Source: Mycobacterium sp. (GTDB taxonomy: Bacteria; Actinomycetota; Actinomycetes; Mycobacteriales; Mycobacteriaceae). Taken from it: a stretch of 64,000 bases of DNA. Below the pieces are notes generated by a model that worked only from the letters and a program-made list of their open reading frames with translations, made no database searches and was not told the origin of the DNA. Of the stretch, positions 3,698 through 5,559 are shown piece after piece (the first letter of the stretch is position 1; every line of letters begins with the position of its first letter). The stretch lies in the NCBI RefSeq assembly GCF_025965975.1, contig NZ_JAOPVX010000020.1. One strand, written 5' to 3'. The position numbers and the translations under genes were made by a program.

Positions 3698-4450
3698 GTG
3701 GAGATCAGAGACGCTGTCGCCGTCGTGACCGGTGGTGCCTCCGGGTTGGGCCTTGCCACCACGAAGCGCCTGCTGGATGCGGGCGCCCAGGTGGTTGTTC
3801 TGGACATCCGCGGCAAGGAGGCGGTCGCCGAACTGGGTGAGCGCGCGGTGTTCGCCGAGACCGACGTCACCGACGAAGCCGCCGTGACCGCCGCGCTCGA
3901 CACCGCCGAGTCGCTCGGCCCGATTCGCATCGTGGTGAACTGTGCGGGAACCGGCAACGCGATCAAAACGCTTGGCAAGGACGGGCCCTTCCCGCTCGAC
4001 CTGTTCCGCAAGGTCGTCGAGATCAACCTGATCGGCACATTCAACGTGATCCGGTTGGGCGCCGAGCGGATCGCCAAGACCGAGCCGATCAGCGGGGAGC
4101 GGGGCGTCATCGTCAACACCGCGTCGGTCGCGGCCTTCGACGGGCAGATCGGTCAGGCCGCCTACTCCGCATCAAAGGGCGGGGTCGTTGGCATGACGCT
4201 GCCCATCGCCCGCGACCTGTCGCGGGACCTGATCCGGGTCGTCACCATCGCCCCTGGCCTGTTCGACACGCCGCTGCTGGCGGGGCTGCCCGAGCCGGCC
4301 AAGGAGTCGCTGGGCCAGCAGGTGCCGCACCCCTCGCGGCTGGGCAAGCCCGACGAGTACGGTGCGCTGGCCATGCACATCGTGGAAAACCCGATGCTCA
4401 ACGGTGAGGTGATCCGCCTCGACGGCGCGATTCGGATGGCACCCCGATGA
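3698..4450 (+). CDS. 3-hydroxyacyl-CoA dehydrogenase type 2 (SDR)
   Basis: GTG start with AGAAAGGA upstream; [19 protein letters not shown] motifs; HSD10-like C-terminus [10 protein letters not shown]. Confidence 0.92.
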
Positions 4451-4546
4451 GCGCTTGCGCGAAGAGGAGACAACCCCGATGAGCGCTTGCGCGAAGAGGA
4501 GACAACACCGATGAGCCGCTTGCGCGAAGAGGAGACAACCCCGATG
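4441..4546 (+). repeat. 32-bp tandem repeat x3 (MIRU-like) encoding coupled mini-ORFs
   Basis: Unit ACCCCGATGAGCGCTTGCGCGAAGAGGAGACA; copy 3 has a 1-nt insertion; no spacers. Confidence 0.9.
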
Positions 4547-4560
4547 ACCAACGAGCACGG

Positions 4561-5559
4561 ATGACGCTCACGACGAAGTTCACCGAGGCGTTCGGGGTCG
4601 ATCACCCCGTCGTACAGGGCGGCATGCAGTGGGTCGGTCGCGCGGAACTGGTTGCCGCCGTGGCGAACTCTGGCGCGTTGGGTTTTTTGACCGCGCTGAC
4701 GCAGCCGACGCCGGCGGATCTCGCGAAGGAGATCGCCAAGACCCGCGAGCTGACCGACAAGCCGTTCGGCGTCAATCTGACGATTCTGCCGACGATCAAC
4801 CCACCGCCGTATGACGAGTACCGCAAGGTGATCGTCGACGCCGGCATCAAGATCGTGGAGACGGCCGGCTCCAATCCCGCGCCGCACCTGCCGATGTTTC
4901 ACGACAACGGGATCAAGGTGCTGCACAAGTGCACCTCGGTGCGCCATGCCGTCAAGGCGCAGAGCCTTGGTGTGGACGGCATCAGCATCGACGGGTTCGA
5001 ATGCGCCGGGCATCCCGGCGAGGACGACATCCCCGGCCTGGTGCTGATCCCGGCGGCCGCGGCCAAGATCGACATCCCGATGATCGCCTCCGGCGGGTTC
5101 GCCGACGCGCGTGGCCTGGTGGCCGCGCTGGCACTGGGCGCCGACGGCATCAACATGGGCAGCCGCTTCATGTGCACCGCCGAGTCGTGCATCCATCAGA
5201 ACGTCAAGGAAGCGATCGTGGCGGGCAGCGAGCTCGACACCGAGCTGATCTTCCGTCCGCTGCGCAACACCGCGCGGGTGGCCAGCAACACGGTGTCGCG
5301 TGAGGTGGTCGAGATCCTCAACCGAGGTGGCGAGTTCCCCGACGTCAAGAACCTGGTCGCAGGCGCGCGCGGGGTCAAGGTGTTCGAGAACGGTGACGTG
5401 GACGCGGGTATCTGGAGCGTCGGCACCGCAATGGGCCTGATCAACGACATCCCGACGGTCGGCGAACTGGTATCGCGCATCGTGGAGGAGGCCGAGGAGC
5501 TGATCACCGGCAGGCTGGGCGACATGGTCGAACCCGATACGAGAGAGAACGTGGCTTAG
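4561..5559 (+). CDS. Nitronate monooxygenase family flavin oxidoreductase
   Basis: [48 protein letters not shown]. Confidence 0.9.

Follow-up and report, generated by a model that had tools for sequence, protein, structure and literature searches.

A tandem array of 32-nt units between an SDR and a nitronate monooxygenase gene of Mycobacterium sp., and its family of short, probably MIRU-type intercistronic repeats

The 64,000-nucleotide (nt) stretch of Mycobacterium sp. DNA analysed here (contig NZ_JAOPVX010000020.1 of assembly GCF_025965975.1, hereafter the window) carries a tandem array of three units (32, 32, and 33 nt long) and, after them, 17 nt that are left of a fourth, between the genes for a short-chain dehydrogenase/reductase (SDR) and a nitronate monooxygenase (NMO). 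This array is probably a member of a family of short, 32-nt intercistronic repeats of rapidly growing and environmental mycobacteria that is of the same type as mycobacterial interspersed repetitive units (MIRUs); we put the probability of this reading at roughly 0.78. MIRUs were reportedly described in the M. tuberculosis complex by Supply et al. in 1997. The anatomy of the array is presented first, followed by its relatives in other genomes, the mechanism that would account for both, and the known systems to which it can be compared.

Anatomy of the array at the SDR-NMO junction

A CoA-transferase III gene (Pfam) precedes the SDR and NMO genes. The elements of the junction, including its small open reading frames (mini-ORFs) and their Shine-Dalgarno (SD) sequences, are the following:

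3695..4450, + strand: SDR gene, the upstream cistron, with an approximate start at 3695 (ORF list; Pfam adh_short 2.4e-43 from residue 8 of the translation starting at 3695)
4447..4478, + strand: unit 1, 32 nt, ATGAGCGCTTGCGCGAAGAGGAGACAACCCCG (sequence reading, Tandem Repeats Finder; nhmmer E=2e-14)
4447-4482, + strand: mini-ORF1, 11 codons; stop 4480-4482 overlaps ATG 4479; SD AGGAG at 4465-4469
4479..4510, + strand: unit 2, 32 nt (sequence reading, Tandem Repeats Finder; nhmmer E=1e-14)
4479-4514, + strand: mini-ORF2, 11 codons; stop 4512-4514 overlaps ATG 4511; SD AGGAG at 4497-4501
4511..4543, + strand: unit 3, 33 nt, a "+C" variant, GAGCCGCTTG, with an extra C at 4516/4517 (nhmmer E=4e-13)
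4511-4564, + strand: mini-ORF3, 17 codons; stop 4562-4564 overlaps the NMO ATG at 4561; SD AGGAG at 4530-4534
4544..4560, + strand: 17-nt remnant of an older unit that has lost 15 nt from its interior, ATGACCAACGAGCACGG (comparison with loci L119, L120, L121, and L167)
4561..5559, + strand: NMO gene, the downstream cistron (ORF list; Pfam NMO 4.8e-52)

A preliminary description of this DNA, made from its letters, had proposed an unbroken chain of ATGA overlaps leading from the SDR stop to the NMO start through three mini-ORFs, and direct reading of the sequence confirms it: the SDR stop (TGA, 4448-4450) is the TGA of the first ATGA and overlaps ATG 4447, and each following stop overlaps the next start as listed above. 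The AGGAG that the same description placed about 9 nt ahead of the next ATG in each unit is present at all three positions, with a spacing of 9 nt in each case to the ATGs at 4479, 4511, and 4544. It had also singled out the frame change in copy 3, after which the chain nevertheless reaches an overlap, but this feature proves not to be meaningful. The extra C makes unit 3 read in frame into ATG 4544, whereas without it a stop TGA would overlap ATG 4544 and a six-codon ORF would follow up to TGA 4562; with or without the extra C, reading ends at TGA 4562, and survival of the chain is therefore automatic.

The repetition itself, with its three units at 4447-4543, stands well clear of chance. Tandem Repeats Finder reports 4441-4547 as 3.3 copies of period 32 (96% matches, score 198), the 31-mer unit has two matches in the window versus none in 100 shuffles, and the 16-mer core has three exact matches where 0.08 are expected. 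Judging from related loci, the segment at 4544-4560 is the remnant of an older unit rather than a spacer: the same 17-nt remnant occurs in L119 and L120 (ATGAGCAAGGAGCACGG), and an intact variant unit stands in L121 and L167 (...GAAGAGCAAGGAGCACnG). The ATGA chain is preserved across the remnant because its length, 17 nt, is 2 mod 3. The N-terminus of the NMO that follows, MTLTTKFTE, is the same as in its orthologues.

The SD sequence nearest to the NMO start reads AACGAG in the window (4550-4555) versus AAGGAG in the one-unit relatives L119 and L120, which leaves the window gene with no good SD sequence 5-12 nt from its ATG. Since the NMO-proximal SD has decayed, translation of NMO in the window is predicted to depend, probably, on the mini-ORF chain.

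Distribution, polarity and copy number of the 32-nt family

The array is one of many. A 20-nt core, GCTTGCGCGAAGAGGAGACA, chosen because it is free of ATGA, was scanned against 185,579 species-representative genomes. It turned up at 118 loci, spread over about 81 assemblies that have 1-4 exact loci each; the carriers are nearly all Mycolicibacterium, Mycobacterium, metagenome-assembled genomes (MAGs) of soil Actinomycetota, and Mycobacteroides chelonae/franklinii. A typical locus reads upstream gene ...(C/T)GATGA-GCGCTTGCGCGAAGAGGAGACA-nnnn(C/T)G-ATG downstream gene, often with 2-5 tandem copies. An nhmmer profile of 118 distinct units, run on the window and on 1.36 Mb of fetched sequence, added about 17 independent diverged loci in the fetched sequence and two more diverged copies within the window, at 43023-43056 and 54554-54586. 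Such diverged copies have retained the 5' half, GATGAGC(C)GCTTGCGCGAAGAG, and drifted in the 3' half. The +C variant of unit 3 is not peculiar to the window either, as it recurs at L038, L046, L054, L085, L087, L115, L118, and L040. In four soil metagenomes containing the organism, the units have a k-mer depth 10-30 times as high as their flanks; contigs end at 4473 and resume at 4480, and only the depth spike is informative there, not the copy number.

One of the 118 core matches, L091 (labelled "MAG: bacterium"), lacks the ATGA context, looks like a chance or unrelated match, and was rejected. Three others (L013, L050, and L100) come from a "Candidatus Sericytochromatia" MAG, a lineage related to cyanobacteria, and carry the repeat at mycobacterial-type junctions such as AccD/AccA; these contigs are probably binning contaminants. 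No match to the array was found by blastn among PLSDB plasmids and GenBank phages, and thus no vector for its spread. Searches of the literature with the repeat sequence, its reverse complement, and the encoded peptide returned no description of the 32-nt family, and a survey of the Mycolicibacterium mobilome does not mention such repeats; the family is apparently undescribed, as far as the searchable literature shows.

Units elsewhere are placed much as they are in the window. A chain was walked at each array from the stop of the nearest long upstream ORF with high GC content at third codon positions to a long downstream ORF, and 81 of 119 arrays have nothing but 4-nt (ATGA/GTGA/TTGA) or 1-nt (TGATG) overlaps at their junctions; 76 of these 81 chains traverse 1-4 mini-ORFs, with a length of 11 codons in 85 cases and of 10 codons in 29. 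The downstream genes are about 42 different ones, including those for ParB, MoaE, PstA, AccA, NMO, thiolase-like proteins, and ABC ATPases. The remaining 38 arrays are mostly cut by the 8-kb locus blocks or show gaps of 0-12 nt, and a handful are antisense or 3'-terminal. Strand calls from codon-position GC content place the flanking coding strand on the strand of the element in 98 versus 7 cases upstream (p about 1e-21) and in 98 versus 10 cases downstream (p about 3e-19).

Unit length is constrained as well. Among 168 units, lengths of 32 (122), 29 (21), 33 (19), 31 (3), 30 (2), and 34 nt (1) were counted, and 143 of them are thus at 2 mod 3, the single phase in which the stop of a unit overlaps the next start. 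With such a period, the chain stays intact whatever the number of units. Most +C variants regain the 32-nt period through a spacer that is 1 nt shorter (L085, L038, and L046). Longer variants of about 56 nt stand beside 32-nt units in the same arrays at the SDR-NMO junctions of L003, L071, and L157; they consist of ATGAGCGCTTGCGCGAAG, about 28 nt, and AGGAGCACCG, and their length (56 = 32 + 24) is also 2 mod 3.

Orthologous junctions with and without the element can be compared directly among 80 loci drawn from metagenomes using the NMO protein. Twelve of these SDR-NMO junctions are empty overlap sites (bare CGATGA in 8 orthologues, TGATG in 3, and GTGA in 1), the element is present in at least 22, either decayed or as 1-5 copies, and many others have TAA or TAG plus a spacer with an SD sequence. 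Filled and empty states are interleaved on the NMO neighbour-joining tree. The clearest pair is formed by L162, empty with CGATGA, and L136, which differs from it by exactly one 32-nt unit between CGATGA repeats. Copy number also changes between close relatives: the window has three units and L119/L120 one (flank identity 96-98%), and among loci of the M. porcinum type L019 has four and L108 one, with flanks about 95% identical. Spacers are locus-specific and usually identical inside one array, and they resemble the 5' flank at 3.66 of 6 positions versus 3.04 in permutations. The spacers thus point to the duplication of a target that is at least 6 nt long and, after it, to tandem amplification on the spot.

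These comparisons speak to the remaining suggestions of the preliminary description. A unit able to expand or contract with its coupling geometry kept is what relatives display (3 versus 1, 4 versus 1, and 0-5 units), all overlaps being retained as copy number varies. Copies at the loci surveyed do sit at stop/start overlaps, in the proportion given above, and are nonrandom in both orientation and frame. The likeness that it drew to MIRUs is apt, the MIRUs at senX3-regX3 of M. tuberculosis having the same overlaps.

The two diverged copies of the window are the following:

43023..43056, - strand: decayed copy, ATG changed to ACG (nhmmer E=2e-6 in the window alone, 4.3e-5 pooled; Pfam)
54554..54586, - strand: antisense copy (nhmmer E=9.6e-9 in the window alone, 2e-7 pooled; Pfam)

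The first is read through as the 11-residue C-terminal tail of a PadR-like regulator (43018-43659, - strand), a tail gained because the ATG of the unit has been lost, and this tail ends in a GTGA overlap with a gene for a FadH-like oxidoreductase (43021-40982). The second is antisense to pruA/pruB (+ strand), directly after their GTGA/TGATG junction, and lies in the called proline dehydrogenase ORF (54543-55544, + strand), within its codons 4-15; the true start of this ORF is uncertain because its Pro_dh domain begins only at residue 61. Other tandem repeats of the window are of different kinds. A PucR-type regulator next to pruA (ORF 52815-51115) contains an in-frame 30-nt x 3 repeat at 51816-51905 (- strand), which encodes LG(L/I)GAAAAATFG three times and has no relation to the 32-nt family. 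A cluster of short tandem repeats, perfect or nearly so, is found at 24040-24937 and 26929-27325, with 3.6 copies of 18 nt at 24849-24913, 3 copies of 15 nt at 27281-27325, and 2 copies of 18 nt at 26929-26964.

Translational coupling and alternative explanations

The element sits at what was already a stop/start overlap (..CGATGA..), with the overlap sequence duplicated at both ends, and the tandem array expands and contracts from there. Each unit opens with an ATG overlapping the preceding stop codon (ATGA or TGATG), continues as a throw-away ORF of 10-11 codons with a strong SD sequence, GAGGAG, 6-9 nt ahead of the next start, and closes with a stop overlapping that start. In the mechanism that we propose, ribosomes ending at the upstream UGA would re-initiate on the overlapping AUG and be passed from mini-ORF to mini-ORF up to the downstream gene, the SD of each unit aiding either re-initiation or fresh initiation. 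Insertion would be tolerated because coupling is preserved, and hence with little polar effect. An SD-like tetramer precedes the first mini-ORF in only 28 of 81 arrays, while later starts always have the GAGGAG of the unit; this scarcity fits an entry by re-initiation at the first AUG.

Several points weigh against the reading of the array as a translationally coupled, MIRU-type element. Translation of the mini-ORFs and re-initiation along them are what we infer from the arrangement of starts and stops. At the L046 locus, RNA-seq contigs of four Mycobacteroides relatives cover the unit and the gene on either side of it uninterruptedly, and two or more further transcribed copies appear in them, but the contigs are assemblies to which DNA may have contributed and come from relatives of the window organism. 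Arrays of 33-nt units fuse in frame (L040, L074, and L097), and some copies are antisense or lie within coding sequence (window 54554-54586, L074, L098, and L092). The 5' half of the unit, GATGAGCGCTTGCGCGAAGAG, is near-invariant over three genera, third codon positions included, which exceeds the needs of coupling. The profile of 118 distinct units has no nhmmer match in the senX3-regX3 region of M. tuberculosis (L199), which was obtained via RegX3. When the ATGA ends are removed, interior-only alignments to MIRUs have p values of 0.07-0.2, within the range of shuffles in what is a low-power test, since even the positive control (the short unit of M. shimoidei versus the M. tuberculosis MIRU) reaches only p=0.05. 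When the ends are left in, 4 of 2000 shuffles equal the best pairwise alignment to a MIRU, CGCTTGCG-GAGGAGGAG, and the family profile has no significant match to the M. simiae and M. shimoidei units. Sequence homology between the 32-nt family and MIRUs is therefore not established, being not demonstrable by these comparisons.

The simplest evolutionary reading, which fits the data equally well, is that of an element, selfish or neutral, that owes its persistence to being transparent to translation. In a bolder version, which we consider doubtful, the element would be actively mobile, recognising NGATGA overlaps in one orientation and phase by a non-transposase-like route; its 5' half would be the recognition sequence, and its arrays would be slippage-adjustable dials of the ratio of downstream to upstream translation.

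Tuning of downstream expression by copy number is possible by analogy. The stronger proposal of an adaptive rheostat, in which copy number is selected to set the downstream/upstream translation ratio as re-initiation loses ribosomes and the SD sequences recruit them, seems to us unlikely. Copy number does differ between close relatives with the chain always kept, the decayed NMO-proximal SD of the window would make NMO dependent on the chain, and, in M. tuberculosis, the length of the MIRU-VNTR (variable number of tandem repeats) array upstream of fpg1 correlates with the level of fpg1 mRNA (PMC2734929). However, about 40 junctions without functional relation to one another carry the same unit, orthologues show a patchwork of filled and empty states, and the 3' half of the units decays freely, all of which is the pattern of a passenger that is tolerated and not of a regulator that is tuned.

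The near-invariance of GATGAGCGCTTGCGCGAAGAG in diverged copies, at all codon positions and next to a drifting 3' half, could also be explained if the 5' half were a cis-acting site, either bound or processed by a protein, a small RNA (sRNA), or an RNase, or used as a DNA site by a recombinase or nucleoid protein, with the overlaps being incidental. The +C variant, in which the peptide is wholly changed and the nucleotide sequence is kept, would agree with this. However, sense polarity, phase bias, and stop/start registration are features of translation that a DNA site does not need, and conservation of the 5' half could equally reflect recent spread, gene conversion, or recognition by a mobilising agent. 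Nor does a structured RNA emerge from the predictions: the minimum free energy of the unit is -5.9 kcal/mol (z = -0.28) and the array has z = -1.25, no z-score beyond this last value being obtained for the plain unit, its +C variant, the whole array, or the MIRU of M. tuberculosis; and Rfam has no match on the array at E<=1, its sole match within 3600-5600 being an insignificant sRNA at 3891-4068. We regard a cis-acting site as distinctly improbable.

A functional micropeptide of 11 residues encoded by the mini-ORFs is very hard to reconcile with the data. The same peptide is encoded at most loci, and in many copies per genome, but it is unlikely to be a selected product because the recurrent +C variant encodes the unrelated MSRLREEET in the same contexts (L038, L046, L054, L085, and copy 3 of the window). 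Variation is moreover without a synonymous pattern, the C-terminal residues follow the locus-specific spacer, and 10-11 residues are too short for any recognisable feature. Finally, a purely local event, namely a chance tandem duplication of the SDR-NMO junction, would agree with the identity of spacers inside most arrays, a sign that units were duplicated locally once they had arrived, but it is already refuted by the 118 exact-core loci at unrelated junctions in three genera.

Significance and relation to known systems

On the translationally coupled MIRU-type reading, the MIRU phenomenon would reach beyond the M. tuberculosis complex to rapid growers and to soil mycobacteria, the M. chelonae/abscessus group among them. 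At 32 nt, the unit is the shortest yet of its kind and comes near to the minimum for such a cassette, i.e., a start, about 10 codons, an SD sequence, and a stop. The bias toward 2 mod 3 is direct comparative evidence that the preservation of stop/start overlaps is under selection, and natural junctions with 0-5 units offer a ready variant series for studies of termination-reinitiation in mycobacteria. The interest of the family is moderate overall, as a natural system of translational coupling and as a source both of candidate VNTR markers for environmental and opportunistic species and of annotation errors.

These errors arise when units are read in frame, which leads to mis-called starts and false protein extensions. 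Public calls of M. tuberculosis RegX3 (P0001-P0004) have 245-277 aa instead of the true 227 aa, from MIRUs read in frame, and 33-nt units give downstream proteins a false MSACAKRRQ.. extension (L063 and L112). The tail of the PadR-like regulator in the window is a further example. Extension by the 32-nt element was also considered for the 244-aa RegX3 calls of Mycolicibacterium and was rejected, the junction in L200 being ordinary.

MIRUs are the closest known counterpart. At senX3-regX3 of M. tuberculosis (L199), 3.1 copies of a 77-nt unit are present; the senX3 stop overlaps the ATG of the first unit (CCGATGACC), and the unit ORFs, 25 codons long, each close with CTGATGA on the ATG that follows, which for the last of them is the ATG of regX3. 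The empty site reads GTCGATGACCAGT in a related slow grower and is also given as GTCGATGACC in a relative, M. shimoidei has a single 37-nt unit, and M. simiae has one long unit. In two other assemblies of the M. tuberculosis complex (L203 and L204), in which the 53-nt MIRU was sought, only homopolymer or collapse variants of the 77-nt unit were found. The 77- and 53-nt MIRU types are paralleled by the variants of about 56 and 32 nt in the present family.

A 27-nt module of the M. tuberculosis senX3-regX3 MIRU, GTGGGGGCACCACCCGCTTGCGGGGGA (L199:1894-1920), is 100% identical in the soil mycobacterial loci L107 (5594-5620) and L049 (5381-5407). It is also present in L208 and in L101 (6293-6319), where it directly abuts the 32-nt core, and it occupies another position inside the M. 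simiae unit. Given this different placement, it may represent a small module that inserts on its own and has come to lie within MIRUs.

The likeness between the two families extends to most of their organisation. Both are intercistronic, sense-oriented, and arranged in tandem arrays of variable copy number, and both are dispersed at many loci, the window containing one array and two decayed copies. In both, small ORFs overlap the flanking ORFs at each end (ATGA/TGATG), an SD-like GGAG tract near the 3' end is followed by (C/T)GATGA, the period is 2 mod 3 (77 nt in L199; 32, 29, 56, and 17 nt in the 32-nt family), and empty sites consist of a plain stop/start overlap, which insertion duplicates. 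We know of no mobilising enzyme for either. The two differ in size, the 32-nt unit lying below the range of 40-100 bp quoted for MIRUs, and in hosts, which are rapid growers, soil mycobacteria, and Mycobacteroides for the 32-nt family and the M. tuberculosis complex for MIRUs. Published descriptions of MIRUs as small ORFs overlapping the flanking ORFs agree with the anatomy found here (PMC12548453, PMC3184786, PMC2734929), and tetranucleotide direct repeats at filled MIRU sites suggest transposition (PMC3184786).

The geometry of the units is also that of coupled genes in general. In the synthetic "bicistronic design", a short leader ORF delivers ribosomes to the downstream gene. Translational coupling by termination-reinitiation takes place at genes with -4/-1 overlaps (reviewed in PMC12548453). 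The 32-nt family shares with these systems the AUGA/UGAUG geometry, a short ORF that would deliver ribosomes, and an SD sequence embedded in the upstream ORF, and it differs from them in that the leader ORF is a repeated, dispersed genomic element, concatenated 1-5 times, whose function is deduced from its arrangement. With miniature inverted-repeat transposable elements (MITEs) and with repetitive extragenic palindromes and the mosaic elements that they form (REP/BIME), the family has in common a small size, an effectively non-coding nature, intergenic dispersal, and a short direct repeat at filled sites. In contrast to MITEs, its units have no terminal inverted repeats, inverted repeats being absent both from the units and from their flanks, and, in contrast to REP/BIME, no palindromic stem-loop; unlike both, the 32-nt family is strictly polar, registered in codon phase, and tandemly amplified.

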